Source of the DNA: a virus
DNA length: 64,000 bases
Strand: one strand, 5' to 3'
IMG/VR virus record: IMGVR_UViG_3300049172_000080
Span: 1-64,000 of that record
In this document: piece after piece, positions 10,066-49,705 of the stretch
Position numbering within the stretch: position 1 is the first letter of the stretch
Layout of the letters: every line of letters begins with the position of its first letter
Program-made: the position numbers and the translations under genes
Notes under the pieces: generated by a model
Databases searched by the model: none
What the model was told of the DNA's origin: nothing
Seen by the model: only the letters and a program-made list of their open reading frames with translations

Positions 10066-10550
10066 TGAGCAACGGCCTGTACCAGACGGTCAAGCCGATA
10101 CCCACCACCGTGCACGGGGTCACCACCCGCTCACGGCTGGAAGCCCGCTGGATCCTGTTCTTCGAACACGCGCGTATCCCGTGGGAGTACGAGCCGGAGG
10201 CGTACCGCATCGGCACCCGGGGGTACCTGCCGGACTTCCGCATCAGGCCCCACCGTGGCGCTGACCAGGCATGGATGGAGATAAAGCCGGTCGCAGATAC
10301 CTTTGACGACCCACGCTGGGCGGGCCTCGTCACCGGGACCGGCCTGATGCTGTTCACGGTGCGCGACATGCACCGTCGGGGAGACGTCTGCGGGCGGGAT
10401 CACACCGTCCGCGTCTGGCACCCGAGCGGCATGGTCGCCGACGTCCACCGTATGTGGACCGGCCCCGAGTTCCGGACGGCGTGGGAGGCGGCTCACGCCG
10501 CGCGATTCGACGGCCGGCGCCCGGCGGTCCGGAAGGGGAGGAGAGAGTAA
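10065..10550 (+). CDS. PD-(D/E)XK-fold nuclease-like protein
   Basis: ATGA overlap with the previous stop; SRLEARWILFFE..YLPDFRI..AWMEIKP gives an E..PD..E-x-K arrangement. Confidence 0.55.
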   Translation: MSNGLYQTVKPIPTTVHGVTTRSRLEARWILFFEHARIPWEYEPEAYRIGTRGYLPDFRIRPHRGADQAWMEIKPVADTFDDPRWAGLVTGTGLMLFTVRDMHRRGDVCGRDHTVRVWHPSGMVADVHRMWTGPEFRTAWEAAHAARFDGRRPAVRKGRRE

Positions 10551-10606
10551 GTGCCCAAGCCCCCGCAGACCAAGGAAGCAATGACCAAGGAATCGAGGAA
10601 TCAGGC

Positions 10607-13600
10607 ATGACCACCTACGTGGAAGCGAACGCGGGGCAGTTGTCCGATCACCACCGGGCAGAGCTGGACGCGAGCGAGATTGCCCCGGAAGTGCGCGACG
10701 CCCGGGGCTACGAGACCCTGTACTGCACCGACGAGGACAAGGCCAGGCTGCGTCAGGAGAAGATCCCGGTCTGGGCATGGCGTGAAGAGTCCGCCTTCCC
10801 GGGTCTGCTCCTGCCGATGTACCGAGTCACCGGCGAGCGCATCGGCGCCATGTTCAAGCCTGGCATTCCGCAGGCGTACAACGAGAAGAAGGTGAAGTAC
10901 GCGACCCCTGTGGGGAAGCCGCGTCTGGACATCCCGCCGTCGGTGGCGCACCTCGTCCGCCCCACCGACCTCCACATGCTTCGTGAGACTCCGCTGTGGA
11001 TCACGGAAGGCATCAAGAAGGCGGACGCGCTCGCGTCCAAGGGCATCGCCGCAGTCACGCTGTCCGGGGTCTACAACTGGCGCGGGACGCTCGGCACTCT
11101 CGGCGACTGGGAGGACGTTCCGCTCAAGGGCCGCAACGTGATCATCTGCTTCGATGCGGATGCGCGGCGCAAGTCCGACGTCCTCTCCGCCATGGTCCGC
11201 CTGGGCCGGTGGCTGGAGACCCGTCGGGCGGAGAACGTCTATTACCTGATCGTCCCCGAGGAAGTGAACGGGGTCGAGGTCAAGGGCGTGGACGACTACT
11301 TCCACGCAGGCGGTACGCTCCAGGGCCTGCGGGACGCGGCCACGCTGGAAGTGCCGTCCGACAACTCCCGGGACGCCGCGTTCAGCGACGCCGTCCTGGT
11401 CGAAACCGTGTGCATGGAGGCCCTGGAAGGGCACTACCGGTGGGCCTCTGGTCTCGGGTGGATGCGTTGGGACGGCAAGGTGTGGACCGAGTGCCCGGAC
11501 GCCCCGGTGCTGGAGGAGATCCGGCTGTGGGCCCGTGCAGGGTGGGACCGGACCCTGGAGGAAATGCGCGGGGGAAAGGATCTGCGTTCTCAACTGGACG
11601 GGTGGAAGAGCGCCCTTTCAGCTTCCAAGCTGGGCAACCTGCTGAAGCTGGCCCGGGGAGTCACCGGCATCCTGGCCGACGCAAACGACTTCGACTACGA
11701 CCCTGACGCGATCAACTGCCAGAACGGCATCCTGGACTTGCGTAGTGGAGTCCTCACCCCGCACGACCCCGACCGGCTGATGACGAAGATCACCAGCTGT
11801 GACTACGTGCCCGGCGCACGGCACGCCGACTGGGACAAGGCCCTGGAGGCCCTGCCAGAAGACGTACGCGGATGGTTCCAGGTACGCATGGGGCAGGCCA
11901 TCACAGGCCATATTCCGCCGGACGACATCATCCTGGTGGCTCAGGGCGGCGGCTCTAACGGCAAGTCAACCATCATGGACACGCTCGCCAACGCGGCCGG
12001 GGAGAAGAACGGCTATCACACGGTGGTGGCCCACAGGGCTCTGCTCGGCAACGCGAGCGACAACCACCCCACCGAGATGATGGATTTCATGGGGGCCCGG
12101 CTCGCGGTGCTGGAAGAGACCCCGGAAGCCAAACGGCTGGACGTCAACCGGGCAAAGCAGCTCGCGGGTACGAAGCAGATCAAAGCACGACGGATGCGCC
12201 AGGACCCGGTCACCTTCAACACGTCACACACGCTGGTCATCAACACAAACAACAAGCCTGTGGTCGACGAGACCGACCACGGCACCTGGCGACGCCTGGC
12301 GATGCTGTGCTTCCCGTTCACGTACCGCAAGCTAGGGGAGCCGTGCAAGGGGCCCAACGACCGGCCGGGGGACCCGACGCTGCGCCAGCGCGTAGCAACG
12401 AACGAGCGCGTCGCCGAGGCGGCCCTGGCATGGATGGTGGAGGGCGCCGGTAAGTGGTACGCAGCCGAGCAGATCATGGAGGCCCCTCCGGTCAGGATCG
12501 AGAGGGACACCCTGGAGTGGCGCAAGGAGTCGGACCTGGTGCTGAGCTTCATCGTGGACCACCTGGAGTTCGACTACAACAGCCACATCTACGCCCCGGA
12601 GCTGTTCGAGACGTTCAAAACGTTCCTCGCTGACAAGGGTCACCAGCCGTGGACGGACCGCACGTTTGTGGCCCGATTCGGAGGCCATGACGAGTGCGCG
12701 AAGAGCGCCGTGGCCCGGAAGCGGATTAGGCCCCGCGAGGGCCGGTCCACCCTCACGCCGCTGGTCGAACCGCCGAACCCCTACTGGGCCTGGCTCGGGG
12801 TCAAGTTCCGGGACCTCGACGAAAACCCGCAGCTCAACGAGGACGAGTCTGGCCCTGTACCGCCTGTACCGCCTACTCCCTATAACCCTGAAATCTCCCC
12901 CCGTATAGGAGGAACTGAAGGAGACGGTACAGGCGGTACAGCTCCTCAGCTTGACCCCAACGCGGACCCGTTCGGCGATGATCCTTTCGCGGAAACGGAG
13001 GCCGATCACGCGCCCCGTGCGACCACCATCCCGGCCCCGTCACCGTCCCCGGAGACCGTCCCGCCGCGCGCCGGTGGTTCCGTCGGGTTCGACCTGGAGA
13101 CCCACTCGGCCAAGCTGCTGTTCCGCCACAAGGATCTCGGCGGAGACCCGTACGTTCGGCTGGCCGGCTACGTCACCGAGGACGGCACGGAGGTCGTCGT
13201 CAACTCCGTGGCTGATCTGATCAAGCGGCTGGAGGATGCCGACGAGCTGTACGGGCACAACCTCCTCGGGTTCGACCTGCTCGCGCTCGCCGTCCACCAC
13301 GGCGCCGACTACGACAAGCTGGCAGCCAAGACGGTGGACACCCTGCGGTGGGAGCAGACCATCAACCCGCCCGGCGCCGCCCACGAGAAGCCGTGGGCGA
13401 CCAAGGGCTACTACGGCCTGGACTCCACGGCACAGCGGTACGGGGTCAACGGCAAGACCGACGACCTGGCCGCCCTCGCCTTCAAGCACGGCCCCGAAGA
13501 GGTCAACGGCCGCAAGCTGGACAAGGCCGAGCGCACCGACCTCGGGTACGGGCGTATCCCGGTCAACGAGCTGACCGTCTACTTCAGCGGCGACCTCCAG

Positions 13601-14950
13601 GCCACCCGGGGCGTGCGGCGCGCCCTGGGCGAGCCGACGGACTACGTCCGGCGCGAGATGCGCGTGGCTCACCTCCAGCACCGGCCGACCCTGACCGGCT
13701 GGAAGGTCGACGTTCCGGTCCTGCGCGAGCTGGTCGACGCGGAGGCGGCCAAGCGGCAGGAGTCCCTGGAGTGGCTGCACGAGAACTGCGGCGTGCCGCT
13801 GACCGAAACCGTCGGCAAGGGCCGGGGCAAGAACCGAGTCTTCACGGAGGTTCCCCGGAAGTCCCCGCTGGCGTCCAACGAGGGCCGCGCAGCGCTCATC
13901 CGGGCTTTCCAGGACCGGGGTCTCCCGTACTACCTCAAAACGGAGTCAGGTGTCATCAGTCTGAGTAAGGACGCGCTGGGTGAGTCGTCGTACATGGTCG
14001 GCAAGGGTGCGGGGGGTCGCGAGGTACCGGCTCTGCTGAACCCGAACCGGCGCCCGTACCACCCGGACGCAGACTGGGCGGGGATTGAGGAGATGGCAGG
14101 GCACATCGTCACCGTGACATCCTCGGTCCAGAAGTACCAGGAGATCATGGACCATCTCGTCGGCGACCGGATCCACCCGCAGGTCGGCGACCTCCAGGGC
14201 TCCGGCCGGTGGGCGTACGTGCGTCCGTCGGTTACCAACATGGCCAAGCGCGGCGGCAAGGTCCACCAGCGCCGACCGCTCATCGCCGACGACGGTCACC
14301 TGCTGATCTGCTTCGACCTGGACCAGGTCGACATGCGCGCCATCGCCGGCCACTGCCAGGACCCGGCGTACATGGCGAACTTTGCGCCCGGGGCCGACGC
14401 GCACAGCATGATTGCCAACGCGGTGTTCGGTAGGGCCGACGGCGAGTGGCGCGACAACGCCAAGAAGATCGGTCACGGCTGGAACTACGGCATGGGTGTG
14501 AAGGGCATCGCCAACTCCGGCGTTGAGCTGGAACTGGCCCAGAAGTTCGACGACCAGATGAACGCGCAGTACCCCGGACTGTGCGCCTGGAGGACCGAAG
14601 TCCGCGAGCGGGGCGCGGCCGGACAGATGCTGGACAACGGCTTCGGCCGGCTCATGCGCTGCAACCCCGACCGCGCCTGGACGCAGGCCCCGGCCCTCAT
14701 GGGTCAGGGCGGCGCCCGGGACATCATGTGCGAGGCGCTGCTGCGGCTCGTCGACCGGGCCCCGGAGGCTACGGAGTGGCTGCGCTGCGTCGTGCACGAC
14801 GAAGTCGTCCTGTGCGTCCCCGAGCACCGCGTGGAGGAGATCACAGCCACCGTGCTCGACGCGTTCACCTTCAGCTTCAAAGGCGTACCGATCACGGCCG
14901 GCGCGAGCAAGGCTTCGGTGACGTGGTCCGGCTGCTACGCGAAGGACTGA
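10607..14950 (+). CDS. Toprim primase / D5-P4-type helicase / family A DNA polymerase in one ORF
   Basis: Toprim WITEGIKKAD..VIICFDADARR; P-loop VAQGGGSNGKST; Walker B LAVLEET; linker 12840-13070; exo GFDLETHS and LYGHNLLGFDL; pol motifs ICFDLDQVDMR, KKIGHGWNYGMG, VVHDEVV; no stop between the modules. Confidence 0.85.
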   Translation: MTTYVEANAGQLSDHHRAELDASEIAPEVRDARGYETLYCTDEDKARLRQEKIPVWAWREESAFPGLLLPMYRVTGERIGAMFKPGIPQAYNEKKVKYATPVGKPRLDIPPSVAHLVRPTDLHMLRETPLWITEGIKKADALASKGIAAVTLSGVYNWRGTLGTLGDWEDVPLKGRNVIICFDADARRKSDVLSAMVRLGRWLETRRAENVYYLIVPEEVNGVEVKGVDDYFHAGGTLQGLRDAATLEVPSDNSRDAAFSDAVLVETVCMEALEGHYRWASGLGWMRWDGKVWTECPDAPVLEEIRLWARAGWDRTLEEMRGGKDLRSQLDGWKSALSASKLGNLLKLARGVTGILADANDFDYDPDAINCQNGILDLRSGVLTPHDPDRLMTKITSCDYVPGARHADWDKALEALPEDVRGWFQVRMGQAITGHIPPDDIILVAQGGGSNGKSTIMDTLANAAGEKNGYHTVVAHRALLGNASDNHPTEMMDFMGARLAVLEETPEAKRLDVNRAKQLAGTKQIKARRMRQDPVTFNTSHTLVINTNNKPVVDETDHGTWRRLAMLCFPFTYRKLGEPCKGPNDRPGDPTLRQRVATNERVAEAALAWMVEGAGKWYAAEQIMEAPPVRIERDTLEWRKESDLVLSFIVDHLEFDYNSHIYAPELFETFKTFLADKGHQPWTDRTFVARFGGHDECAKSAVARKRIRPREGRSTLTPLVEPPNPYWAWLGVKFRDLDENPQLNEDESGPVPPVPPTPYNPEISPRIGGTEGDGTGGTAPQLDPNADPFGDDPFAETEADHAPRATTIPAPSPSPETVPPRAGGSVGFDLETHSAKLLFRHKDLGGDPYVRLAGYVTEDGTEVVVNSVADLIKRLEDADELYGHNLLGFDLLALAVHHGADYDKLAAKTVDTLRWEQTINPPGAAHEKPWATKGYYGLDSTAQRYGVNGKTDDLAALAFKHGPEEVNGRKLDKAERTDLGYGRIPVNELTVYFSGDLQATRGVRRALGEPTDYVRREMRVAHLQHRPTLTGWKVDVPVLRELVDAEAAKRQESLEWLHENCGVPLTETVGKGRGKNRVFTEVPRKSPLASNEGRAALIRAFQDRGLPYYLKTESGVISLSKDALGESSYMVGKGAGGREVPALLNPNRRPYHPDADWAGIEEMAGHIVTVTSSVQKYQEIMDHLVGDRIHPQVGDLQGSGRWAYVRPSVTNMAKRGGKVHQRRPLIADDGHLLICFDLDQVDMRAIAGHCQDPAYMANFAPGADAHSMIANAVFGRADGEWRDNAKKIGHGWNYGMGVKGIANSGVELELAQKFDDQMNAQYPGLCAWRTEVRERGAAGQMLDNGFGRLMRCNPDRAWTQAPALMGQGGARDIMCEALLRLVDRAPEATEWLRCVVHDEVVLCVPEHRVEEITATVLDAFTFSFKGVPITAGASKASVTWSGCYAKD
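12855..12941. repeat. 87-bp IR-flanked element, copy B (inside the primase-polymerase linker)
   Basis: CTGTACCGCCTGTACCGCC (12855-12873) and its near-perfect inverse GACGGTACAGGCGGTACAG (12923-12941); core TAACCCTGAAATCTCCCCCCGTATAGG resembles copy A at 61096-61180. Confidence 0.6.
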
Positions 14951-17663: not shown

Positions 17664-17693
17664 GAGCCCCGGAGCCTCACGGTCCGGGGCTTC
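17664..17693 (+). terminator. hairpin terminator (GCCCCGGA family)
   Basis: GCCCCGGA / TCCGGGGC stem, 9-nt loop, then TTCG. Confidence 0.6.
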
Positions 17694-17697: not shown

Positions 17698-17766
17698 CGC
17701 TCCGGAACGATCATGAGCTGCTCCGGTCTTAACATCGCCGCGTCCAACGACCAGGCGAAGGGGTAG
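17698..17766 (+). promoter_or_regulatory. conserved leader with 17-codon uORF upstream of the modification operon
   Basis: 18-mer CGCTCCGGAACGATCATG (17698-17715) is identical to 53512-53529; the ATG 17713 uORF (MSCSGLNIAASNDQAKG) stops 2 nt before the ParB-like start. Confidence 0.4.
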
Positions 17767-17768
17767 CG

Positions 17769-18605
17769 ATGACCACGACCATCGGAACCGAGCAGGTCTC
17801 GCTGGAAGACCTCACCCCGTTCCCCGGCAACGCCCGGCGCGGCAACGTGGAGAGGATCCTGGACAGCCTCCGGGCGAACGGCCAGTACAAGCCGCTCACG
17901 GTGCGCCGGCAGGGCGAGACGCTGACGATCCTCGCCGGGAACCACACGTACCTTGCGCTGCTGCGGCACGAGGAGTCCGGCCGGGACGCCTGCCAGGACT
18001 GGGAGCTGGCCAACGACCGGCCGTGCCAGCTCTGCATCAACGTCGACAGCGACGACCCCACCGCACTCGCCCACCTCATCGAGTGCGACGACGACACCGC
18101 CAAGCGCATCAACCTGGTGGACAACAAATCGGCGGACGACGGTACCTACGACGACGAGGCCGTGGCCGCCATCCTCGGCTCGCTGGAGGGCGGTGTCGTC
18201 GGCACCGGCTACAGCGACGACGAGGCCGACTCGATCCTGGCCCGGTTCGAGGAAGAGGAAGTAGTCGAGTACACCGCGCCGGCGGTCGCCGAGTACAACG
18301 ACTCCCCGGAGGAACGCCAGTCGCGCATGGACTCGCACGGCGGGGAGAACAGCCGCACCTACGAGTCGCGCGGCGTGCGGGACATCTTCCTCGCCATGCC
18401 CAACGCCGAGGCCGACGAGCTGGGGCGCTGCATCATGGCGCTGCGCGAGCACTTCGGCGCCATGAGCCAGAGCGAGGTCGTGCTGCGGGCGGCCCGGGTC
18501 GCCGTGGCGGTGATGGACGGCGCGGACTCGGGTCTGACCCTCGCGGAGTGTCTCGGCCGGGGTGAGGAGATCTACGCCCCGGAGGAGACCCAGGACGCGG
18601 CATGA
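17769..18605 (+). CDS. ParB/Srx-like N-terminal domain protein
   Basis: LTPFPGNARRGNVERILDSLRANGQYKPLTVRR..ILAGNHTYLAL ParB-type nuclease/NTPase domain; 278 aa. Confidence 0.8.
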   Translation: MTTTIGTEQVSLEDLTPFPGNARRGNVERILDSLRANGQYKPLTVRRQGETLTILAGNHTYLALLRHEESGRDACQDWELANDRPCQLCINVDSDDPTALAHLIECDDDTAKRINLVDNKSADDGTYDDEAVAAILGSLEGGVVGTGYSDDEADSILARFEEEEVVEYTAPAVAEYNDSPEERQSRMDSHGGENSRTYESRGVRDIFLAMPNAEADELGRCIMALREHFGAMSQSEVVLRAARVAVAVMDGADSGLTLAECLGRGEEIYAPEETQDAA

Positions 18606-19690
18606 CAGCCCGGGTGGAGCTGACCGTCGGCATGGACTTCCGGCAGCCGTCCCTCCGGCGCGAGGTGTTCCTGCGCTTCTACGAGTGGTCCGTGCGGCAT
18701 CGTTCGTTCCCAGGCGGGGTGCACTACGTGCTGCCGCACCTGGCCGACGCGCTCGGCTGGGACACGGAGCAGCGCTTCTGGGCAGCGTTCCTCAACGCCA
18801 ACACCCAGAACCCTGTCACCACGCTGCTGCTCATGCAGGCCGCCCCGCACCCCGCCGACGCCTCCGGGGCGCTGGCGTTCTGGCAGCGGCACTACCGGGA
18901 GCTGGAGTGGGACACGGACCGCCGGTACCACAAAGCCCGGTTCAGCGACGCGGTGGACGGCTACCTGAAGCTGATCGGCTCCGGACCGGCGGCGCAGACC
19001 CGCTACTTCCGTCGGCCGCACGAGTGGACGGCGTGGTGGGAGGCCGCCTCGGCCGTCCCGACCATGGGCCGGCTGTCCACCTGGAGCTACCTGGAGTATC
19101 TGCGGATCCTGGAGTGCGGGGCACCGGACGCCGACACGCTCATGCTCACCGATATACCCGGCTCCCGCAGTCACCGCAACGGTCTCGCCCTGGTGGCCGG
19201 ACACGACGAGTGGATCTCCGACAAGCAGCTTGGCCTGGCCCCGGTCGCCTACACACCGGACGTGCTCAGCAAGCTGGCGTCCGTCGGCTACGGCCTGCTT
19301 CGCGAGGCGGCCCGCCGCCTGCCCGGGGACCGCACGGTCGGGTACCTGTCGCTGGAGTCGGCCCTGTGCACCTACAAGAGCTGGCACAAGCCGAACCGGC
19401 GGTATCCCGGCGTCTACAACGACATGCTGCACGACCGGATCGTCCGGGCGGAGAACCGCTTCGGCCGCCGCTTCGGCGTTATCTGGGACGCCCGGCGCGA
19501 GGCCCTGCCTGCCCGGCTGCGGCTGGAGGACAACCCCGGGGACCCGGGCTGCGTGCCGGTCAAGCAGAACTGGTATCTGACCACCGGCCAGGTCATCGGT
19601 ATGGCCGAGGAGTGGCCGTGCTTCACCAACGACTTCGACCGCATGGTGCGCGAGGGCGTGTTCGGCGTGAGGGAGCGGGCGTGGCTGTGA
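18602..19690 (+). CDS. candidate alpha-glutamyl/putrescinyl-thymine pyrophosphorylase-like (aGPT-Pplase) DNA base transferase
   Basis: ATGA overlap with the ParB-like gene; 362-aa protein; the assignment rests on operon context (kinase plus TET/JBP) and recollection of the family, not on a verified motif. Confidence 0.4.
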   Translation: MTARVELTVGMDFRQPSLRREVFLRFYEWSVRHRSFPGGVHYVLPHLADALGWDTEQRFWAAFLNANTQNPVTTLLLMQAAPHPADASGALAFWQRHYRELEWDTDRRYHKARFSDAVDGYLKLIGSGPAAQTRYFRRPHEWTAWWEAASAVPTMGRLSTWSYLEYLRILECGAPDADTLMLTDIPGSRSHRNGLALVAGHDEWISDKQLGLAPVAYTPDVLSKLASVGYGLLREAARRLPGDRTVGYLSLESALCTYKSWHKPNRRYPGVYNDMLHDRIVRAENRFGRRFGVIWDARREALPARLRLEDNPGDPGCVPVKQNWYLTTGQVIGMAEEWPCFTNDFDRMVREGVFGVRERAWL

Positions 19691-20415
19691 ACAAAGCGAT
19701 CCTCTGCGAGCGGTGGGAAATGCCGCTCGCAGAGCAGAACGACAGCAGCCGGTGGTTCGTCGACTGGGTCCGCCGGGACGCGAAGCAGGCCAGCGCGCAC
19801 GTCACCGCCGGGTACTGCGCCTACCGCGCGCTCAGCCTGGTCTACACCCCGGACGAGCTGCGCACGGCGGAGGAGTTCTTCGGCGGGCTCGGCTGCCAGT
19901 CGCTCATCATCAGCGATCGGTGGCAGCCGGAGCAGCACACCATCCACGAACATCACCCAGCCGCCGTGGAGCACCTGCGCACGCTGCTGCCGTGGGCCGA
20001 CGTATGGCGCTCCGACTCCTACGCCGTGGAGCCGGTCGGGGCGGACCTGGTCGGGCTGGACTTCGGGGACCTGACGGCGTGGCGGCTGCGCGAGGGTCAG
20101 GCTCACCGGCGGCTGCTCGATGCGGTGTTCGCCCGGAGGCCCCGGGCCGTGGTGCTCACGGACATCGCCGGGCCCCGGTTGCATCTGCACCGCGAACGCT
20201 ACAGCGAGGTGCTCGGCGCCGTCAGTCTCCCCAGCTATCGGGCGTACCTGGAGGCGCTGGTGCGCTGGTTCCAGACCACCTACGACTACGCGCTGGTGCG
20301 CGGCTACTGGCAGAGCTGGTCCACCGTGCTGGCGCTTGTCCCGGCGGAGAACTTCATCGGGCTGGGGTCGCTGGAACCCGTGCCCGACCGGCCCCGAGGA
20401 ATCGAGATCCTGTGA
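19687..20415 (+). CDS. hypothetical protein of the modification operon
   Basis: GTGA overlap upstream and TGATG overlap downstream; 242 aa; no motif recognised. Confidence 0.65.
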   Translation: MNKAILCERWEMPLAEQNDSSRWFVDWVRRDAKQASAHVTAGYCAYRALSLVYTPDELRTAEEFFGGLGCQSLIISDRWQPEQHTIHEHHPAAVEHLRTLLPWADVWRSDSYAVEPVGADLVGLDFGDLTAWRLREGQAHRRLLDAVFARRPRAVVLTDIAGPRLHLHRERYSEVLGAVSLPSYRAYLEALVRWFQTTYDYALVRGYWQSWSTVLALVPAENFIGLGSLEPVPDRPRGIEIL

Positions 20416-21284
20416 TGGACCTGGACACCTGGCTCAGCCCCGTGGAGAACCGGGACGGCCGCCTCTACAAGCGCGAAGATCTCGCCGCGCTGCCGGTCGG
20501 CGTCAACGGCTCCAAGCTGCGCGCCTGCGAGCACCTGATAGGCCGAGCCGCCCGTGCTGGCGCCAAGCGCGTCATCTCCGCCGCGTCCGTGCTCTCCCCG
20601 CAGAGCGCCATGGCGGCCGTCCTGGCGCAGCGCCACGGCCTCGGCTGCACGGTCGTCGTCGGAGGCACGAAGCCCAGTACGGCTATCCGCCACCCCTCGG
20701 TACGCATGGCCGTGGACCACGGCGCCTCACTGGAGTTCGCGGCCGTCGGCTACAACCCGGCGCTCCAGTCCTACGCGCGCAAGCTCGCCGCCCTCGACCC
20801 CGGCGCCTACTGGCTCCAGTACGGCATCACCACCCCACCCGCCGCCGGCCGCGAGGAGCTACGCGCCTTCCACGACGTTGCCGCCCGGCAGACCGCCAAC
20901 CTGCCGCCCGGTGTGGAGACGCTGGTGCTGCCGTTCGGCTCGGGCAACACCGGCGCCGGAGTGCTCATGGGCCTGGCGCAGCGCCCACCGGCAGACCGTC
21001 CGGAGCGCATCGTCCTCGTCGGAATCGGACCCGACCGGCGGGCCTGGCTCGCGGACCGGTTCGCCGCGATGGGCCTGCGGCTCCCTGCCTACGAGCACCT
21101 CGACCTGCATGGCTCCGGGTACGCCGCCTACGGCGACAAGATGCCCGGCACCGCCGACGGCATCCGCCTGCACCCCACCTACGAGGGCAAGGTCGTGCGC
21201 TACCTGAACGAGAAGCGGCCCGAGTGGTGGGCCCGGCGCGACGGCACGACGTGCCTGTGGATCGTGGGAGGGCCGATCTCGTGA
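20415..21284 (+). CDS. PLP-dependent enzyme, fold type II (Trp-synthase-beta / ACC-deaminase-like)
   Basis: YKREDL..VNGSKLR lysine motif and FGSGNTGAG phosphate-binding loop; 289 aa. Confidence 0.7.
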   Translation: MDLDTWLSPVENRDGRLYKREDLAALPVGVNGSKLRACEHLIGRAARAGAKRVISAASVLSPQSAMAAVLAQRHGLGCTVVVGGTKPSTAIRHPSVRMAVDHGASLEFAAVGYNPALQSYARKLAALDPGAYWLQYGITTPPAAGREELRAFHDVAARQTANLPPGVETLVLPFGSGNTGAGVLMGLAQRPPADRPERIVLVGIGPDRRAWLADRFAAMGLRLPAYEHLDLHGSGYAAYGDKMPGTADGIRLHPTYEGKVVRYLNEKRPEWWARRDGTTCLWIVGGPIS

Positions 21285-21856
21285 TCAGCGAGCTGCTGTA
21301 CATCGTCGGCCCGCCCGGCGCGGGGAAGTCCACCCTCGCGCGGGAGCTGCGCACCGGCTGGGACACGGAGGTCGACCGGCACCACCCCGTTCCGCACACT
21401 CGGTTCAACCACCCTGCGACCGGCCGGACCATCGGCCTGGAGCTGGGGGTGCCCCGGCCGGAATTCCCCGGCACCGACGCCCTGGCCATGGACATCGGGC
21501 CCCGGGCGCTCCAGTTCCTCTCCTCCAGCTACCTGCACTTCGCCCTCGGCGAGGGCGCCCGACTGGCCACGCGGCCGTTCCTCGGAGGACTGGCGCAGAA
21601 GGGCGTCGCCGTGACCGTGGTGGAGCTGATGGCGTCGCAGGCGCTGCTGGACGAACGGTGGCGCGAGCGCGGAGCGAAGCAGAACCCCTCCTGGCGCAAG
21701 GGCGCGGCCACCCGGGCGCAGCGCATAGCCGAGTGGGCGGCCGGAGCGCCGGGCGTTCGGCTGCGGTGCATCGACGTGGGGGAGTACAGCCTGTCGGAGA
21801 TGGCGGAAGAGGTGCGCGACGTCTTCCCGCCGATAGCCCTGGAGGTGGCTCGGTGA
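21281..21856 (+). CDS. P-loop kinase (candidate 5-hydroxymethyl-base DNA kinase)
   Basis: GTGA overlap; LYIVGPPGAGKSTLAREL Walker A; 191 aa; role inferred from context. Confidence 0.6.
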   Translation: MISELLYIVGPPGAGKSTLARELRTGWDTEVDRHHPVPHTRFNHPATGRTIGLELGVPRPEFPGTDALAMDIGPRALQFLSSSYLHFALGEGARLATRPFLGGLAQKGVAVTVVELMASQALLDERWRERGAKQNPSWRKGAATRAQRIAEWAAGAPGVRLRCIDVGEYSLSEMAEEVRDVFPPIALEVAR

Positions 21857-22746
21857 TCTCGATACGCCTGCGCTCGCGCATCAGTAAGCAGGAGCTGGAT
21901 GAGAAGGTCGGCAAGGTCATCGGCGACGACGCGTACAACGTGCTGCTGACCGGCCCGAGCCGGGTCTTCATGCCCGACGGCCGACCGCTGTGCGTCTACC
22001 TGCCTGGAGCGATGCGGGACGTCGTGACCGAGGAGCAGTACGAAATCCTGCACAGCCTGCGCGGGGACAAGACGCACAACCGGGGCCCGGCGTCCGGCTC
22101 CATGGCTGTCCGGCCCGGTGAGCAGAAACGCCAGTACTTCAAGTACGTCAGCTCATCCATCCTCGGCTCGTTCGACCCCAACGGAACGTTCAAGTTCTGC
22201 CGCCTCACCGCCTGGACGGGTAAGAACCTGCCGCAGTGGGAGGCGCTGCGCCCCGCGTTGCAGACGGTTGCCGACAACATGCGGCAGCACGTCCCCGACC
22301 GCTACGCGGCACAGATGGGGGAGATCGAGCAGACGCACCCGGACTGGGTGGTGCCCGGTACCCCGTTCATGACGATCACGGTCAACAACACGTACCCGAC
22401 CGGTGTCCACACCGACAAGGGCGACTTGGACAAGGGCTTCAGCACGATTTTCTGTCTGCGGCGCGGCGAGTACACCGGAGGCCGGTTCGTGTTCCCTGAA
22501 TTCCGCGTCGCCGTCGACCTCCAGGACGGCGATCTGATCCTCATGGACGCGCACCAGTGGCACGGGAACACCGCGCTCGTCTGCGCGTGCGGGGAGAAGC
22601 GGACGGCGTACTGCGACGCTTGCGGCGCCGAGCGAATCTCGGTCGTCAGCTACATGCGCACCGCGATGACCAAGTGCGCCAGCGAGGCCGAGGAGATCAG
22701 CCGGGCGCGGGAGTACCGCGAGCGCACCAAGGGCGTCGTCCGTTAA
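21853..22746 (+). CDS. TET/JBP-family 2OG/Fe(II) dioxygenase
   Basis: GTGA overlap; TGVHTDKGD (HxD), GGRFVFPEF, GDLILMDAHQWHGNT (distal His), then a Cys4 ribbon CACGEKRTAYCDACG; 297 aa. Confidence 0.7.
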   Translation: MISIRLRSRISKQELDEKVGKVIGDDAYNVLLTGPSRVFMPDGRPLCVYLPGAMRDVVTEEQYEILHSLRGDKTHNRGPASGSMAVRPGEQKRQYFKYVSSSILGSFDPNGTFKFCRLTAWTGKNLPQWEALRPALQTVADNMRQHVPDRYAAQMGEIEQTHPDWVVPGTPFMTITVNNTYPTGVHTDKGDLDKGFSTIFCLRRGEYTGGRFVFPEFRVAVDLQDGDLILMDAHQWHGNTALVCACGEKRTAYCDACGAERISVVSYMRTAMTKCASEAEEISRAREYRERTKGVVR

Positions 22747-22768
22747 CCGTTAGGGAGGCTAAGGACCT

Positions 22769-23401
22769 ATGGCGAAGGGTGACCCGCCCAACCAGCAGCC
22801 CAGCCACCGGGCGATGGTGGCGCAGCGGCGCACGCGCGCCATCGAACTGAAGAACCGGGGTCTGTCCTGGCAGCAGGTGGCGGAGCAGATGTCCCCGCAC
22901 TACCTGGACTCCGACGGCAATCCTTCGGCGGCGGCAGCCTGCGTGGACGTCTCCCGCGCGCTGAAGCAGGCGAACAAAGAGTTGGCCATGGGGCTGGAGG
23001 AGTACCGCGAGGCGGCGCGGATGCGACTGGACGGGCTGCGCCGTCAGGTGTTCGCCGTCCTCGCCCGGCCGCACTACGTTCTGCACGCGGGGCAGATCGT
23101 CCGCGACGACGAGGGCAACCCCCTCCGCGACGACAGCGTGGTCCTTGCGTGCGTCGACCGGCTGCAACGCATCGAGGAGCGGCAGGCGAAGATCGACGGC
23201 ACGGACGCGTCGGAAAAGTTGACCATCGCGCTCGACCGCCGGGTAGACGAGGAGACGACGGTGGTGGTGGAGGCCATCCTGGCCGGCGCCAACGCGGTGG
23301 AACTCGAACCCGCGCAGCGGCAGCGGATGCTGGAGGCGGCCGGCGCGCACCTTCGCGTCCTGGAGGGCGAAGTCGTCTCGGAGACGGAGGACCCCGGATG
23401 A
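22769..23401 (+). CDS. HTH DNA-binding protein, possible small terminase subunit
   Basis: RRTRAIELKNRGLSWQQVAEQM HTH followed by a coiled-coil-like region; SD GGGAGG; function tentative. Confidence 0.45.
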   Translation: MAKGDPPNQQPSHRAMVAQRRTRAIELKNRGLSWQQVAEQMSPHYLDSDGNPSAAAACVDVSRALKQANKELAMGLEEYREAARMRLDGLRRQVFAVLARPHYVLHAGQIVRDDEGNPLRDDSVVLACVDRLQRIEERQAKIDGTDASEKLTIALDRRVDEETTVVVEAILAGANAVELEPAQRQRMLEAAGAHLRVLEGEVVSETEDPG

Positions 23402-24066: not shown

Positions 24067-25149
24067 ATGCGCATACTGCTCACCGGTGCGGCGGGGTTCG
24101 TTGGGAGCCACGTTCTGCGACACCTGCTGACGCACACGGACTGGGACGTCGTCTGCCCGGTGTCCTTCCATCACAAGGGCCTGCCGGCGCGTATCGCCTC
24201 AGCCGTGTCCGACACGCAATGGGCGCACCGCGTGGACATTGTGCACTGGGACATGCGCGCTCCGGCCGACTCGTTGACGCTGCACGAGTTCGAGGACTGC
24301 GACGTGATCATGAACGTCGCCTCCGAGTCGCACGTCGACCGCTCGATAGCCAACCCGGTCCCGTTCGTGCAGAACAACGTGGCGTTGATGCTGAACGCCT
24401 TGGAGGTCGCGCGGGCTATCGAGCCCCGGCTGTTCCTCCAGATGTCCACAGACGAGGTGTACGGCCCGGCCTACGGAGAGCACCGGCACGCGGAGTGGGA
24501 GCCGGCCGTGCCGTCGAACCCGTACAGCGCGAGCAAGGCCGCGCAGGAGGCCATCGCCGTCAGCTACTGGCGTACCTACGGCGTACCGGTCGTCATCACG
24601 AACACGATGAACATCATCGGGGAGATGCAGGACGGGGAGAAGTACCTCCCGAAGATCATCAAGAGTCTTCGCGCGGGGCGGCCCGTCCCGGTGCACACCG
24701 CGCCCGACGGCACCCCCGGCTCCCGCTTCTACCTCCACGCGCGCAACCTGGCCGACGCCTGGCTGTACCTGACGCGCCGGTACACCGAAGACGAGCCTGA
24801 CGTGACCACCCTGAGTGGCGAGCGCATACGCATCGCCATGGGCCCGGCGCAGTACCGGGACGGCGCGTTCACCCGGCCCGAGCGGTACAACATCGTCGGT
24901 GAGCGCGAGGTGGACAACGTGGAGCTAGTGCACATGGTCGGTGGGGCCATGGGCCTGGACCCTGGCGTCGTGGACAACCTGATCGAACCCACCTCGTTCC
25001 ACGCCTCGCGGCCGGGGCACGACCTGCGCTACGCCCTGGACGGCTCCAAGCTCGACGCCCTCGGCTGGGAGCCGCCGGTGTCGCTGGAGAAGTCCATCGA
25101 GACCACCGTGCGCTGGTCGCTCGACAACCCGCTCTGGCTGGAGCTGTAG
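24067..25149 (+). CDS. NDP-sugar 4,6-dehydratase/epimerase (extended SDR, RmlB-like)
   Basis: LLTGAAGFVGSH Rossmann motif, MSTDEVYG, YSASKAAQE (YxxxK); 360 aa; isolated between two hairpins. Confidence 0.85.
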   Translation: MRILLTGAAGFVGSHVLRHLLTHTDWDVVCPVSFHHKGLPARIASAVSDTQWAHRVDIVHWDMRAPADSLTLHEFEDCDVIMNVASESHVDRSIANPVPFVQNNVALMLNALEVARAIEPRLFLQMSTDEVYGPAYGEHRHAEWEPAVPSNPYSASKAAQEAIAVSYWRTYGVPVVITNTMNIIGEMQDGEKYLPKIIKSLRAGRPVPVHTAPDGTPGSRFYLHARNLADAWLYLTRRYTEDEPDVTTLSGERIRIAMGPAQYRDGAFTRPERYNIVGEREVDNVELVHMVGGAMGLDPGVVDNLIEPTSFHASRPGHDLRYALDGSKLDALGWEPPVSLEKSIETTVRWSLDNPLWLEL

Positions 25150-27518: not shown

Positions 27519-27637
27519 GACTCTTGAGACCGGGCTCGCTACAGCCCGACTTCAGGAACACCGCCCCGACGGGTTTCCGGGACGGCGTTTCGCGTTCTCC
27601 AGCGGCCTGCCACCCTGCCAGGGAGGCAGGCCGCTTT

Positions 27638-29893
27638 GTGCTCCGGAAACCGGCGGGCGCAGCTCCACCGACAATGGCCCCCATGGTGGACCGGATGCTG
27701 AGCCGCGCGGCGGCCGAGAAGCTGCTGATGCATGCGCGCCTGGTGACCGAGCCGCGCTGGACTCCGCTGCCCCACCAGGTTCCGCCCGAGGGCGACTGGT
27801 ACGGATGGCTGCTGCTGGCGGGCCGTGGCGCCGGGAAGACGGACGCCTGCGCGAGGTACGTGCACGAGCACGTCATGGGCCCGCCGTGCCTGCCCGGCCC
27901 CATCCCGCACTGGATAGGCATCATCGCGCCCACCCTCGGCGACGCGGCCACCTCCTGCTTCGCCGGTCCGTCCGGCCTTCGCGTGCACAGCCCCGAGGCG
28001 CACATGACCACCCGCCAAGGCGGCACGATCATCAAGTGGCCCAACGGCTCCGAGGCGAAGGTGTTCGGCGCGCACAGCCCCGAGGACATCGAGCGTCTGC
28101 GGTCCGGCGGTAACCGCTGCGTGGCGGAGGGCACGCTGGTGCGCACCGAGCACGGGGAGCGGCCCATCGAGACCATCCGGCCCGGGGACCGCGTGTGGAC
28201 CCGCAACGGCCTGCGCTCCGTGCTGGCGGTCTGGGACAACGGCGTGAAGGACGTGGTGCGTTACGACCACGACGCCGGGCCTACGTGGCTCACCCCGGAC
28301 CACAAGGTAGCCACGGCTGACGGCTGGAAACCCGTTTCGCTCGTCCAGCCAACGGAGACAATCTTTACATGGGGAAATACGGGGAATCGATACGTTACGA
28401 CGGCATCACGTGGCACGCCGGACCGGACGACTACTACCGGAGCACGCGCCACGGTCTGCTGCACCGGTACATGTACGCCCGCGAGGTCGGCCCGATACCC
28501 GCAGGGATGCAGGTGCACCACCGCAACCACGACAAGCGGGACAACCGCGTCAGCAATTTCGTACTGCTCGCCCCTGGCCAGCACTGGCACGAGCACCACG
28601 GCGAGCGCGGGGAAGACTGGCACAGCAAGGGCGGTCGGGCGACCTGGGACCATGCGCAGTACCGGGAGTTCACCTGCCAGCGGTGTGGCGAGGTCTTCCG
28701 CTCCCGAGGGACGACCGGAGCGCGGTACTGCTCCGGAGCCTGCCGGGAGGCTGTTGCTCCGTCACGAACACGGGAAGAACGGGTGTGCAGCGTGTGCGGC
28801 GACACGTTCGAGTGCCAGCGCCGGAACCCGACCCGCACCTGTTCGCGCCGGTGCACTTCGGTCCTCGCGTACCAGTCGCGCCGCGCGTGTGTACGACCTA
28901 ACGGTTGAGCACGATCACGAGTTCTTCGCGGGCGGCCTGCTCGTCTCCAACTGCCTGGCTTGGCTGGAGGAACTGGCCGCCTGGCGCTACCTGGACGACA
29001 CGTGGGACCAGATGCGGTTCGGTCTGCGTGTCGGCCCGCGCCCGCACTGGATCGCATCCACCACCCCGAAGCCCCGGACCCTCATCAAGCGCCTGGCCGC
29101 TGGCGAGATAGCCAACGTGGTGCGCACGCACGCGTCCATGTACGACAACCCTCACCTGCCCGAGGACATTCGGGCCGCGCTGGAGGATGCGTACGCCGGG
29201 ACGCAGATCGGCCGCCAGGAGCTGCACGCCGAGATTATCGACGCCGACGAAAACGCGCTGTGGACCCGAGGCACGATCGACGACCACCGGGTGCGCCCGG
29301 GTGACGTGCCACACCTCATCCGCAAGTCCATCGGCGTGGACCCGTCGGGCGGCCGGGGCGAGCAGGGCATCGTCGTCGTGGGCAAGGCGATGGTGTCGCA
29401 GGAGCCTGACGATCCGAGCCGGCCGCTGAAGCAGCGCATGCCGCTGGCGCACGGCTACGTCCTCGCCGACCGCACGTGCCACCTCTCCCCGGACGGCTGG
29501 GGCCGCCGCGCGGTGCAGGCAGCCGTCGACTACGAGGCGGACGACATCTGCGTGGAGGTCAACTTCGGCGGGGACATGGCCGTCCACACCATCCGGGCCG
29601 CCGCCGACGCCATGGGCATCAACATCCCGATCCGCACCGTGCGCGCGACGCGGGGGAAGAAGGTGCGCGCGGAGCCGGTCAGCGCGCTGAGTGAGCAGGG
29701 CCGTTGGCACATGGTGGGGGAGTTCCCTGAGCTGGAGGACCAGATGTGCACCTGGTACGACGAGCTGGACTGGAGCCCCGACCGGCTGGACGCGATGGTC
29801 TGGCCGGCCTGGCACCAGCGCATCGTGAAGGCGACGATGACCGGCACGACGTCGTCCAAGGGCCTGGCCACAGCGGCCCGCACAATCGGGTGA
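27638..29893 (+). CDS. terL: terminase large subunit, interrupted by an intein
   Basis: Walker A LLLAGRGAGKTDA; Walker B-like CLAWLEELAAW after intein removal; C-terminal nuclease-like region; start ambiguous (GTG 27638 after GGGAGG, or ATG 27674). Confidence 0.85.
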   Translation: MLRKPAGAAPPTMAPMVDRMLSRAAAEKLLMHARLVTEPRWTPLPHQVPPEGDWYGWLLLAGRGAGKTDACARYVHEHVMGPPCLPGPIPHWIGIIAPTLGDAATSCFAGPSGLRVHSPEAHMTTRQGGTIIKWPNGSEAKVFGAHSPEDIERLRSGGNRCVAEGTLVRTEHGERPIETIRPGDRVWTRNGLRSVLAVWDNGVKDVVRYDHDAGPTWLTPDHKVATADGWKPVSLVQPTETIFTWGNTGNRYVTTASRGTPDRTTTTGARATVCCTGTCTPARSARYPQGCRCTTATTTSGTTASAISYCSPLASTGTSTTASAGKTGTARAVGRPGTMRSTGSSPASGVARSSAPEGRPERGTAPEPAGRLLLRHEHGKNGCAACAATRSSASAGTRPAPVRAGALRSSRTSRAARVYDLTVEHDHEFFAGGLLVSNCLAWLEELAAWRYLDDTWDQMRFGLRVGPRPHWIASTTPKPRTLIKRLAAGEIANVVRTHASMYDNPHLPEDIRAALEDAYAGTQIGRQELHAEIIDADENALWTRGTIDDHRVRPGDVPHLIRKSIGVDPSGGRGEQGIVVVGKAMVSQEPDDPSRPLKQRMPLAHGYVLADRTCHLSPDGWGRRAVQAAVDYEADDICVEVNFGGDMAVHTIRAAADAMGINIPIRTVRATRGKKVRAEPVSALSEQGRWHMVGEFPELEDQMCTWYDELDWSPDRLDAMVWPAWHQRIVKATMTGTTSSKGLATAARTIG
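28118..28951 (+). mobile_element. intein (278 codons) in terL
   Basis: Cys1 CVAEGTLVRT (block A), LTPDHKVATADGW (block B), VYDLTVEHDHEFFAGG (F), LLVSN followed by Cys+1 (G); inserted immediately before the ATPase Walker B motif. Confidence 0.8.
28369..28908 (+). CDS. HNH endonuclease ORF nested in the intein in a different frame
   Basis: 179-aa ORF with its own ATG; GMQVHHRNHDKRDNRVSNFVLL..HWHEHH HNH core plus CQRCG..CSGAC and CSVCG..CSRRC pairs; the terminase frame over the same DNA is T/A/S/G/R low-complexity. Confidence 0.7.
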   Translation: MGKYGESIRYDGITWHAGPDDYYRSTRHGLLHRYMYAREVGPIPAGMQVHHRNHDKRDNRVSNFVLLAPGQHWHEHHGERGEDWHSKGGRATWDHAQYREFTCQRCGEVFRSRGTTGARYCSGACREAVAPSRTREERVCSVCGDTFECQRRNPTRTCSRRCTSVLAYQSRRACVRPNG

Positions 29894-33332: not shown

Positions 33333-34433
33333 TCACAGGAACCGGTCGACCAGGCCCTCGTATACCTTCACGGCCGCCGCCGCGTGCGTGCGCTTGAGCG
33401 CCTCGTCGTCCCGGCGACGGATGTAGCGCATCGTCGTGGAAATGTGGCTGTGGTCGGCGAACCGGCGGATATCGTCCGGCGTTGGCTTCCCGTCCTTCGA
33501 CGCCAGACCCTCGTCGTACATGTGGGTCAGCTTGCTGGCCCTCAGGACATGCGGGGTGAGGTCCCGGCCCGGCAGCACACCGGCCGCACGGCCGAGGCGG
33601 TTCAACAGCCGGTCCACGGCGTGCCGGTCCATCGGCCGGCCGCCGTCATCGAGCAGCAGGTGCCCGGAGGTGCGGCCCTCCCAGCACACCGCGCCCAGCT
33701 CGCACAGCTTCGGCGGAAGGGTGAACTTCCGGCCCTTGCCGCCCTTGCGGGTCAGGTCCAGCTTGCACTCCCCGCCGGACGGCTTCATGTGCTGCATCCC
33801 GGCCGCGCAGCACTCCGAGACGCGGCCGGCCAGCGTGTAGATGAGCACCGGCACGAGGGCCTGGCGCGGGGTCTGCGCCTGCTCCACCACAGCCTGGAAC
33901 TCAGGCACTTCGAGGATCGGCGTCATCGCCGCCTCGTCGTGCTGGTCGATCACCGGCCGGTCGTACCGGGTGATGGGGTTGATGATCTCCAGCCGGGTAC
34001 GGAACTTGGTGTACTCGATCAGCGAAGTCAGCGAGGACACCAGCCGGTTGACCCGGCGCGGCCCGAGCCCGATGTCCGTGGTCCAGGCCCTCCAGGCCGG
34101 GATGACGTCGGGGGTGATCGCCCCGAGGTACCAGGGCTCAGTACCGACCAGCTCCCGGGCGGCGCGTGCCCAGTGGCGGACGTCGTCGGCGTACTCGCGC
34201 CGGGTGCCGTCGCTCAGCCTCTCGGAGTTCAACCACCCCACCACGTGCTCGAACGTCTCGGGTGCGCACAGCTCGTGAAGCAGGTCGAGCCGGTGGACGC
34301 GCGGCCCGAGCCGGCGGTTCCTCGGGTCGCGCGGGGCGACCGTGCCCAGTTTCTCGCGCAGGCCCAGCACGGTACGCAGCGCCGCGTTCCCGTCGGCCGC
34401 GATGGTGGTGGGCTCGGTTGGAGCGAGTGTCAC
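33333..34433 (-). CDS. int: tyrosine integrase
   Basis: LAGRVSE (Arg), HVLRAS (HxxR), ADHSHISTTMRYI (His..Tyr); start set at the GTG with a GTGA overlap onto the upstream stop. Confidence 0.85.
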   Translation of the reverse strand: MTLAPTEPTTIAADGNAALRTVLGLREKLGTVAPRDPRNRRLGPRVHRLDLLHELCAPETFEHVVGWLNSERLSDGTRREYADDVRHWARAARELVGTEPWYLGAITPDVIPAWRAWTTDIGLGPRRVNRLVSSLTSLIEYTKFRTRLEIINPITRYDRPVIDQHDEAAMTPILEVPEFQAVVEQAQTPRQALVPVLIYTLAGRVSECCAAGMQHMKPSGGECKLDLTRKGGKGRKFTLPPKLCELGAVCWEGRTSGHLLLDDGGRPMDRHAVDRLLNRLGRAAGVLPGRDLTPHVLRASKLTHMYDEGLASKDGKPTPDDIRRFADHSHISTTMRYIRRRDDEALKRTHAAAAVKVYEGLVDRFL

Positions 34434-49695: not shown

Positions 49696-49705
49696 GGGGT
49701 CTGCC

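Follow-up and report, generated by a model that had tools for sequence, protein, structure and literature searches.

The six genes at positions 17769-22746 of the IMG/VR virus record IMGVR_UViG_3300049172_000080 raise the question of which modified base they might build in the DNA of their phage, and from which precursor. We analyzed positions 1 to 64,000 of that record, a stretch of 64,000 nucleotides that is called the window in the following. Our answer, to which we assign a probability of about 0.85, is that the locus is a thymidine hypermodification operon that is fed by a DNA dioxygenase. The operon comprises the following open reading frames (ORFs):

17769-18605, + strand: ParB/Srx-fold protein, 278 aa, ATG start
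18602-19690, + strand: putative amino acid:DNA transferase (AADT), 362 aa, ATG start
19687-20415, + strand: protein with a predicted class-I S-adenosylmethionine (SAM)-methyltransferase fold (MTf), 242 aa, GTG start
20415-21284, + strand: fold-type II pyridoxal phosphate (PLP) enzyme, 289 aa, ATG start
21281-21856, + strand: predicted P-loop kinase, 191 aa, GTG start
21853-22746, + strand: Tet/JBP-family Fe(II)/2-oxoglutarate dioxygenase, 297 aa, GTG start

A preliminary description of this DNA, made from the sequence without database searches, had proposed these six overlapping ORFs, and all of them were found in frame at the coordinates given there, with the five junctions being, in order, ATGA, GTGA, TGATG, GTGA and GTGA overlaps of 1 or 4 bp. 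The overlaps themselves suggest that the six genes are translationally coupled. The sequence motifs quoted in the same description were likewise located at defined residues of the proteins, and the profile searches that it had proposed placed four of the six proteins above the Pfam gathering cut-offs, including the matches to Tet_JBP and to ADDT, the former aGPT-Pplase. The start codons, GTG starts included, are backed by homologues that align from residue 1, and the ratios of non-synonymous to synonymous substitutions (dN/dS) of 0.04-0.24, calculated for all six genes against three related contigs, indicate purifying selection. Moreover, the gene set was found again in at least seven other contigs with identities down to 54%; it is kept in four close relatives (L008-L011) and in the remoter contigs L017, with a dioxygenase that is 59% identical, L042 and L044.

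The enzyme proposed to feed the pathway is encoded by the last gene. Its product matches Pfam Tet_JBP (PF12851, 1.3e-17, 63.9 bits with a cut-off of 34.9) and phrog_24024 (4e-45), and it displays the motifs HTD (residues 186-188), GGRFVFPEF, DAHQWHGNT (232-240) and CxC-x8-CxxC (244-258) as well as a C-terminal helical extension. The residues H186, D188, H237 and R261 (HxD...H...R) are kept across seven homologues including gp2 of Mycobacterium phage Prince, which is annotated as thymidine hydroxylase; together with the profile match they bear out the earlier Tet/JBP call. The cysteine cluster C244, C246, C255 and C258 was only found in the Streptomyces/Actinomadura clade. By analogy, the predicted activity of the protein is hydroxylation of the C5-methyl group of thymine in DNA. 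The ParB-like protein at the other end of the operon, which carries FPGNARRG (residues 18-25) and ILAGNHTYLAL (54-64), matches phrog_723 'ParB-like' (3.8e-39) and is 29% identical to Prince gp1, and no match was obtained with Pfam models, including those for helix-turn-helix domains. Its AlphaFold2 (AF2) model has an overall confidence (pLDDT) of 79.5, with mostly more than 90 for the first 120 residues, and consists of a confident N-domain of nucleotide-binding type (residues 1-125), an acidic, disordered linker of low confidence, and C-terminal helices. The C-terminal part comprises four helices at a pLDDT of about 75-80, for which a global TM score of only about 0.3 means low confidence for a domain assignment. 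The best Foldseek matches of the model were ParB proteins with CDP or CTP from B. subtilis, M. xanthus and C. crescentus, Noc and KorB (E 6.5e-6). The protein is predicted to activate the thymine dioxygenase or to load it onto DNA. A ParB-like gene also adjoins the dioxygenase homologue of Pelagibacter phage HTVC112P.

Such pairs have a precedent. Recently, ParB-dependent and ParB-independent phage thymine dioxygenases have been defined and reconstituted in vivo and in vitro; the ParB-dependent enzymes make 5-hydroxymethyluracil (5hmU) in double-stranded DNA and were reported to be 'consistently linked' with GATases, P-loop kinases and AADTs (O'Toole et al., PNAS 2026, PMC13229309). The operon in the window resembles their 5mYOX clade C1 in that the Tet_JBP enzyme is co-encoded with a ParB/Srx-fold protein, with the M. 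xanthus and C. crescentus ParB proteins as structural matches, in that a P-loop kinase and an AADT belong to the cluster while no C5-methyltransferase was found, and in the C-terminal extension of the dioxygenase. The clade C1 ParB partner keeps a C-terminal dimerisation domain without an obvious DNA-binding domain (PMC13229309). However, the ParB-like and dioxygenase genes of the window stand at opposite ends of the operon, and the published work ends at 5hmU, without the downstream tailoring set found here. Already in 2021, contigs had been shown in which Tet_JBP replaces the deoxyuridine monophosphate (dUMP) hydroxymethylase beside hypermodification genes (Lee et al., PMC8989533). Operons with ParB, TET/JBP, aGPT-Pplase2 and kinase genes, with 4-bp overlaps and a position upstream of the terminase, are furthermore annotated in the cultured actinophages Gordonia CaiB (cluster DR), Rhodococcus Tonitrus and Mycobacterium Prince (cluster B). 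They share with the window the ParB-like protein, Tet_JBP, the AADT (57% identity with Prince gp3) and the kinase (39%), as well as the 4-bp overlaps, the location upstream of packaging genes and hosts among the Actinobacteria. They differ in having four or five genes, the Prince locus has neither PLP enzyme nor MTf, and the dioxygenases are distant (27%, E 5e-8). Collectively, these reports contradict the earlier statement that a dioxygenase-first route is uncharacterised. In the literature searched, no report was found that identifies the modified base chemically for any actinophage carrying an operon of this kind.

Another source of the hydroxymethylated base was looked for in several ways. 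No thymidylate-synthase-like gene was detected in the window (best tblastn E 0.43), a motif scan of the window gave no C5-methyltransferase, and domain searches with 30 further ORFs of the window, as well as with the ten largest ORFs of the approximately 19 kb of flanks in the near-identical relative IMGVR_UViG_3300049139_000178, revealed neither a hydroxymethylase nor a C5-methyltransferase. The absence of both enzyme types from the 64 kb, as noted in the preliminary description, was thus borne out by tblastn, motif scan and the 30 ORFs. Because Tet_JBP, ADDT, kinase and PALP proteins are present and neither a hydroxymethylase nor a C5-methyltransferase was found, a post-replicative, dioxygenase-first thymidine route is the best reading of the locus. 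The enzyme could instead be a TET-type oxidase of 5-methylcytosine (5mC), in which case the operon would hypermodify cytosine. Phage Tet_JBP enzymes of clades A and B oxidise 5mC (PMC8256090), the thymine dioxygenases 5mYOX97 and 5mYOX176 do so as well in vitro (PMC13229309), and a sibling phage in Streptomyces sp. NRRL S-455 carries a C5 DNA methylase at the equivalent place. Yet this sibling island has no Tet_JBP gene, neither the window nor the examined flanks of the close relative yielded a C5-methyltransferase, the association with ParB and the lack of a C5-methyltransferase are the published markers of thymine dioxygenases (PMC13229309), and AADT, kinase and PLP partners are known solely from thymidine pathways (PMC8989533). 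A cytosine pathway is therefore regarded as extremely improbable.

The thymidine route then requires activation of the hydroxyl group, for which the fifth gene is the candidate. The protein with the P-loop had been recognized before from its Walker A motif GPPGAGKST (residues 10-18), and it was now assigned to Pfam Ploopntkinase3 (PF18751, 7.3e-25). This family is confined to actinophages (416 records), and a member is annotated as 'DNA kinase' next to aGPT-Pplase2 in Gordonia phage Wooper. No similarity was found to ViI gp243 in a direct comparison or to M6 gp54 and PaMx11 gp49 by BLASTP. From its context, the protein is predicted to phosphorylate 5-hydroxymethyl-deoxyuridine (5-hmdU) in DNA and so to create the leaving group for the next step, and the role of the Ploopntkinase3 family may be broader than 5-hmdU phosphorylation.

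The next two activities resemble a well-characterized pair. The sequence 5-hmdU, kinase, AADT and PLP decarboxylase has been reconstituted for the phages ViI and M6 (PMC8989533). The 362-aa protein of the window, which had been called aGPT-Pplase from context only, matches Pfam ADDT (PF18724, formerly aGPT-Pplase clade 2) with 2.1e-14 and 54.3 bits at a cut-off of 26.2, as well as phrog_3271 (8e-82), which establishes the family assignment. It is 57% identical to Prince gp3 and 46% to the 'aGPT-Pplase clade 2' protein of Montesquieu. Among characterized enzymes, the serine transferase ViI gp247 is its nearest relative (24% identity, E 1e-17, 70 bits); BLASTP gave no match with the glycine transferases M6 gp51 and PaMx11 gp46, and all three match the same Pfam ADDT model as the window protein. 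For the AADT, the predicted reaction is replacement of the phosphate group on 5-phosphomethyl-dU by an amino acid. The PLP enzyme, correctly described before as fold-type II, matches Pfam PALP (2.2e-12) and phrog_3650 (4e-72) and shows YKREDL (residues 18-23), NGSKLR (31-36) and FGSGNTGAG (174-182). It is 30% identical to ViI gp226 (YP_004327553) over 96% coverage (BLASTP, E 1e-44), and K34 within NGSKLR, the predicted Schiff-base lysine, aligns with K92 of gp226. ViI gp226 is a proven O-seryl-thymidine decarboxylase with K92 as proposed Schiff-base residue (PMC8989533). Both proven decarboxylases, M6 gp52 and ViI gp226, are PALP proteins, and the claim that the characterized pathways do not use this class of PLP enzyme was thus mistaken. 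Homologues of the PLP enzyme occur in 349 phage records, mostly Ackermannviridae, and the AADT homologues were found in nearly the same set of Ackermannviridae genomes.

Compared with the ViI pathway to 5-(2-aminoethoxy)methyl-dU (5-NeOmdU; kinases gp67 and gp243, gp247, gp226; Lee et al. 2018, 2021, PMC8989533), the window has AADT and PLP enzymes whose closest characterized relatives are those of ViI, and the same logic of phosphate activation, amino-acid transfer and decarboxylation. In contrast, 5-hmdU comes from a dUMP hydroxymethylase in ViI, whereas the window would use a DNA dioxygenase with ParB; the ViI kinase belongs to Pfam HMUD2 and not to Ploopntkinase3, the ViI genes are scattered and not united in a single operon, and the window has an additional gene for a methyltransferase-fold protein.

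This additional gene, 19687-20415, had been described as having no recognisable motif, which was not supported by the present analysis. The protein gave no match in Pfam, PHROGs or NCBIfam, a tblastn search (E <= 1) of 50,697 phage records returned nothing, a scan of 185,579 bacterial species genomes limited to two peptide patterns revealed no relatives, and a profile search against PDB sequences yielded only noise (BCS1, Mtf1, E 0.2-1.6). Nevertheless, 160 homologues were found, all of about 240 aa, unannotated and found only on uncultured phage contigs, mostly within thymidine-hypermodification clusters; some of them show only sub-threshold matches to AviRa or Methyltransf_25 (E 0.03-0.1). 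In their alignment, E63, F65, G66, G67 and G69 are invariant and form the motif I E63-x-F-G-G-x-G69, followed by the acidic motif II residue E88 (E or D at this position in 40 homologues), DSY (110-112) and LDFGD (124-128). The AF2 model (pLDDT 94.3, pTM 0.92) retrieved 1,198 Foldseek matches in the PDB at E <= 1e-3, the top ones all being methyltransferase-fold enzymes and the best belonging to the DnrK/TamK/RdmB family of small-molecule methyltransferases (E 1.6e-9); in BFVD, 'AdoMet_MTases domain' proteins of uncultured phages matched with TM scores of 0.73-0.81. We are confident that the model represents a class-I SAM-methyltransferase fold, and the protein is predicted to be an extra tailoring enzyme of the pathway. 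A role as DNA amino- or C5-methyltransferase was considered and rejected, because it has neither DPPY/SPPY nor PCQ/ENV motifs and its 242 aa leave no room for a target-recognition domain. The gene is under purifying selection (dN/dS 0.11-0.20), and 15 of the 16 IMG/VR loci with an MTf homologue have thymidine-hypermodification genes at a distance of up to 10 kb.

The relation of these tailoring genes to the remainder of the operon could be read from related loci. The AADT-MTf-PLP triad is found, adjacent and in the same order, in the dioxygenase-fed clusters of L008-L011, L017, L042 and L044, and likewise adjacent and in the same order in clusters that have a thymidylate-synthase-like hydroxymethylase and HMUDK_hel in place of the ParB-like protein and the dioxygenase (L005, L013-L015, L018). 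Since the triad occurs with either source of 5-hmdU, the module is apparently indifferent to how 5-hmdU is made. A contig of 92,743 bp from Streptomyces africanus NRRL B-24243 (L035) encodes a dioxygenase that is 95% identical. When compared by blastn with the window, homology covers 17699-18577 (89%) and resumes at 21277-23377 (87%), with sharp breakpoints that delimit the following feature:

18578-21276, + strand: exchangeable tailoring cassette, comprising the 3' end of the ParB-like gene and the AADT, MTf and PLP genes

Outside the cassette, the ParB-like protein (90%), the kinase (88%) and the dioxygenase (95%) are conserved in the S. africanus contig, and the downstream genes are also kept. 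The replacement genes encode an ADDT protein (1.4e-17) and a DAO-family FAD oxidoreductase (6.8e-12). This AADT is only 24% identical to that of the window, its nearest characterized relative being M6 gp51 and a further one the Gly-type PaMx11 gp46, and the flavoenzyme is 27% identical to the lyase PaMx11 gp47. The replacement cassette, with an AADT nearest to the Gly type and a DAO flavoenzyme, thereby resembles the 5-aminomethyl-dU branch of PaMx11 (Gly:DNA transferase gp46, flavin-dependent lyase gp47), a gene pair that is not in the window and whose counterpart, swapped in at the S. africanus locus, defines the cassette boundaries. The swap separates activation from tailoring functions, with the ParB-like protein, kinase and dioxygenase as the constant part of the dioxygenase-type islands and the AADT and its partners as the exchangeable one. 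At the same position, after the conserved ParB N-domain, still other islands are present in L040, a contig of 95,726 bp from Streptomyces sp. NRRL S-455, and in the sibling L041; these two further versions comprise a C5 DNA methylase, an Asn synthase/GATase and a Methyltransf_25 protein (L040), and a ParB fused to an N6/N4 methyltransferase. Altogether, four island versions were seen in Streptomyces phages of about 93-96 kb with flanks that are 77-97% identical at the protein level. Because the ParB-like gene heads all four at the same position, it marks the head of a hypervariable DNA-modification island. In L042, an HNH endonuclease gene (5364-5933) is inserted between the AADT and MTf genes, which is consistent with mobile-element traffic in the island.

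From these data, the following pathway can be proposed, which as a whole, leaving aside the exact product, we regard as probable. A ParB-assisted Tet/JBP dioxygenase would convert the C5-methyl group of thymine in double-stranded phage DNA to give 5-hmdU, the hydroxyl of which would be phosphorylated by the P-loop kinase. The AADT would then swap the phosphate for an amino acid, most likely serine linked via its side-chain oxygen. Serine in O-linkage is favored because the ViI pair is the closest characterized match for both the AADT and the PLP enzyme, because the PLP step needs a free alpha-amine, and because no radical-SAM isomerase is present; it has been shown that O-linked serine fulfils this need and N-linked glycine only after radical-SAM isomerisation (PMC8989533). 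The gp226-like PLP enzyme would decarboxylate the adduct to an aminoethoxymethyl-type side chain, i.e. 5-NeOmdU or a close analogue. Finally, MTf might add one or more methyl groups, most plausibly on the free amine, giving an undescribed derivative; this step is placed after the PLP step since prior N-methylation would block Schiff-base formation. The data themselves show the gene identities, the folds, the synteny, the purifying selection and the cassette swap; all chemical steps, the amino acid used, the order of PLP enzyme and MTf, and the final product are deduced by analogy with the characterized systems. For the ViI-like chemistry of serine transfer followed by decarboxylation we see about even odds, and it is possible, albeit doubtful, that the product is methylated and novel.

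Several points weigh against this pathway. The phage is known here from metagenomic sequence, and about 14 kb of the closest full-length relative lay outside the search for a hydroxymethylase or C5-methyltransferase. The ParB-like and dioxygenase genes are not adjacent. With 24% identity to ViI gp247, the AADT is too distant for its amino-acid specificity to be read. The verified kinases M6 gp54 and ViI gp243 belong to HMUDK_HMUD1 and HMUD2, respectively, and PaMx11 gp49 matches only the generic AAA_33. In hundreds of cluster-B mycobacteriophages, a member of the window kinase family occupies the gene 1 position (nt 28-477) immediately ahead of the terminase, and its annotation there varies between adenylate kinase, nucleotide kinase and terminase small subunit. 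MTf has no sequence-level membership in any curated methyltransferase family, the best structural matches of its fold include the non-methylating enzymes TamK (decarboxylase) and RdmB (hydroxylase), it occurs without hypermodification genes in L007 (an NCBI metagenome contig of 10.5 kb) and L043 (alone within 6 kb), and several contigs place it 7-9 kb away from a thymidylate-synthase-like hydroxymethylase gene.

The kinase-related points could mean that the fifth ORF encodes a small terminase or packaging ATPase and the first one a partition ParB of a plasmid prophage, both being chance neighbours of the modification genes. The P-loop protein indeed also matches phrog_800 'terminase small subunit', and its family sits just upstream of the terminase in many actinophages. 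Moreover, an extrachromosomal prophage would fit the whole-contig siblings of 92.7 and 95.7 kb, and one relative has a weakly ParA/CbiA-like ORF (L029, 16050-16730). However, the ParB-like gene heads four different modification islands including the direct fusion with an N6/N4 methyltransferase, the ParB-dependence of a dioxygenase subclass has been experimentally shown (PMC13229309), all operon junctions are overlaps of 1 or 4 bp, and the large terminase of the window lies 5.7 kb downstream with five other genes in between. A chance association of this kind is considered very unlikely.

The low identity of the AADT to gp247 would also agree with a non-serine nucleophile, glycine, threonine, homoserine, glutamate and polyamines being among the candidates, and with a PLP enzyme that catalyzes another reaction, such as beta-elimination or deamination in the manner of its relatives ACC deaminase and D-cysteine desulfhydrase, giving a product unrelated to 5-NeOmdU. 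Known AADTs use Gly, Ser or putrescine (PMC8989533), Prince has the 57%-identical AADT and no PLP enzyme, and among NCBIfam models the PLP enzyme comes nearest to ACC deaminase, D-Cys desulfhydrase, CuyA and XcbE, with scores far below the cut-off in every case. This scenario is rather unlikely, as the closest characterized homologue of the PLP enzyme is a decarboxylase, AADT and PLP homologues co-occur in the Ackermannviridae as mentioned above, and the operon has no radical-SAM isomerase as required for the N-linked glycine route.

It is likewise conceivable that the pathway proceeds as proposed but ends with the known 5-NeOmdU or another described adduct. MTf would then be an independent methyltransferase of DNA or RNA, serve as a scaffold or catalyze something other than methylation. 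The ViI type of the AADT and PLP enzymes fits well with this assumption, as do the non-methylating members among the best PDB matches of MTf and the loci in which its gene stands alone or at a distance of 7-9 kb from the remaining hypermodification genes (L007, L043, L012, L016, L021-L023). The close linkage in 15 of the 16 IMG/VR loci argues against it, as does the location of MTf between AADT and PLP, in overlapping or nearly abutting ORFs, in at least six distinct contig groups. In addition, the cassette swap in the S. africanus sibling affects MTf together with its AADT and PLP neighbours, its SAM-binding motifs are invariant and its dN/dS is low, and the missing DPPY/SPPY and PCQ motifs and the short length do not fit a DNA methyltransferase. 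We therefore consider this outcome unlikely. Regarding the proposed methylation by MTf, an undescribed product may result, and this possibility comes from the MTf gene and not from the PLP enzyme. It is tentatively suggested, at odds well below even, that the MTf family represents dedicated DNA-hypermodification tailoring enzymes that methylate an amino-acid-derived thymine side chain to an undescribed base, and that the island is a cassette-swap hot spot changing the DNA chemistry of Streptomyces phages. If true, the base could for example be a mono-, di- or tri-N-methylated 5-(2-aminoethoxy)methyl-dU, which would represent a DNA parallel to the serine-ethanolamine-choline route of phospholipid head groups.

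Thymidine hypermodifications guard the phage genome against restriction enzymes and CRISPR nucleases, and they are a source of enzymes for DNA chemistry. The operon described here most likely serves to protect the DNA of its phage against nucleases of the host. It adds little to the principle, since dioxygenase-fed, ParB-activated pathways have already been published; the remaining novelty is the MTf family and the final base, not the PLP enzyme or the dioxygenase route, and the island with its exchangeable cassettes in Streptomyces phages is a useful by-product. The unannotated family of about 160 MTf members tied to these clusters may define a new final base. Furthermore, the locus represents a compact and fully clustered version of ViI-type chemistry that can do without nucleotide-pool enzymes and is thus a good candidate for heterologous reconstitution, and the near-identical Streptomyces phages differing only in the tailoring cassette provide a natural experiment. 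The presence of a sibling phage in the available strain S. africanus NRRL B-24243 opens the chemistry of this lineage to experiment.

The window belongs to a phage, as shown by its genes for a helicase, a primase-PolA fusion, a large terminase with an intein, a portal protein and an integrase. The 50,697 phage records yielded no megablast match to the operon and, for the structural region, only one of 113 nt in the tape-measure gene, hence there is no close cultured relative. The sibling contigs are part of Streptomyces assemblies, which identifies Streptomyces as host. A tyrosine integrase gene is located at 33333-34496 on the - strand, yet L035 and L040 are whole stand-alone contigs, and with the ParA/CbiA-like ORF mentioned above the lineage may be temperate or plasmid-like. 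The data are best explained by a temperate Streptomyces phage of roughly 95 kb, whose operon joins constant activation genes to an exchangeable set of tailoring genes.

Upstream of the operon, the boundary to a 64-aa ORF ending at 17646 is marked by one further feature:

17664-17693, + strand: GC-rich hairpin between the 64-aa ORF and the operon, found in sequence and predicted fold

The hairpin had been named a terminator in the preliminary description. It is real as a GC-rich structure, but it has no U-tract, was missed by a consensus terminator scan, and its fold energy is ordinary for its composition (z = -1.1). Given the actinobacterial host, it could plausibly act as a terminator without U-tract at the 5' boundary of the operon. 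The consensus scan did not reveal a promoter either.

Some neighbouring and related genes are worth mentioning. An NAD-dependent epimerase/dehydratase (24067-25149, + strand; Epimerase 9e-43, GDP_Man_Dehyd 4e-40) is encoded 1.3 kb downstream of the operon and has a counterpart in L029 (12104-13162). It was rejected as a pathway member, because it adjoins all four island variants including those without thymidine-hypermodification genes; it might act on cell envelope or DNA sugars. Just past the window end, a weak glycosyltransferase-like ORF (E 7e-4, below cut-off) is found in a relative. In Mycobacterium phage AlanGrant (L003, 1-3152), a 480-aa gp1 with ParB-like N-terminus is followed by a PLP enzyme, 46% identical to that of the window, and then by the kinase, and neither AADT nor Tet_JBP was detected by tblastn; a cultured phage thus has yet another permutation of the module.

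Shortly before the modification island lies the gene for a 1,498-aa fusion protein (10454-14950, + strand) that combines DUF3854 (Toprim-like), a D5_N primase/helicase, DUF5906 and a family-A DNA polymerase domain and is kept in all siblings. The large terminase gene (27524-29893, + strand; Terminase_6N and 6C) is split by a Hint-domain intein at about residues 199-275, whereas the terminase of the sibling L041 is uninterrupted with 457 aa. A block of genes on the - strand holds a ResIII/DEAD helicase (6892-8541) and a 1,032-aa ORF (3317-6415) with strong coding signal (GC content at third codon positions 0.91) and no Pfam match. Finally, a 668-aa protein of the structural block (49508-51514, + strand) contains a polysaccharide deacetylase domain (3.4e-7) and may be a tail-associated depolymerase or esterase.

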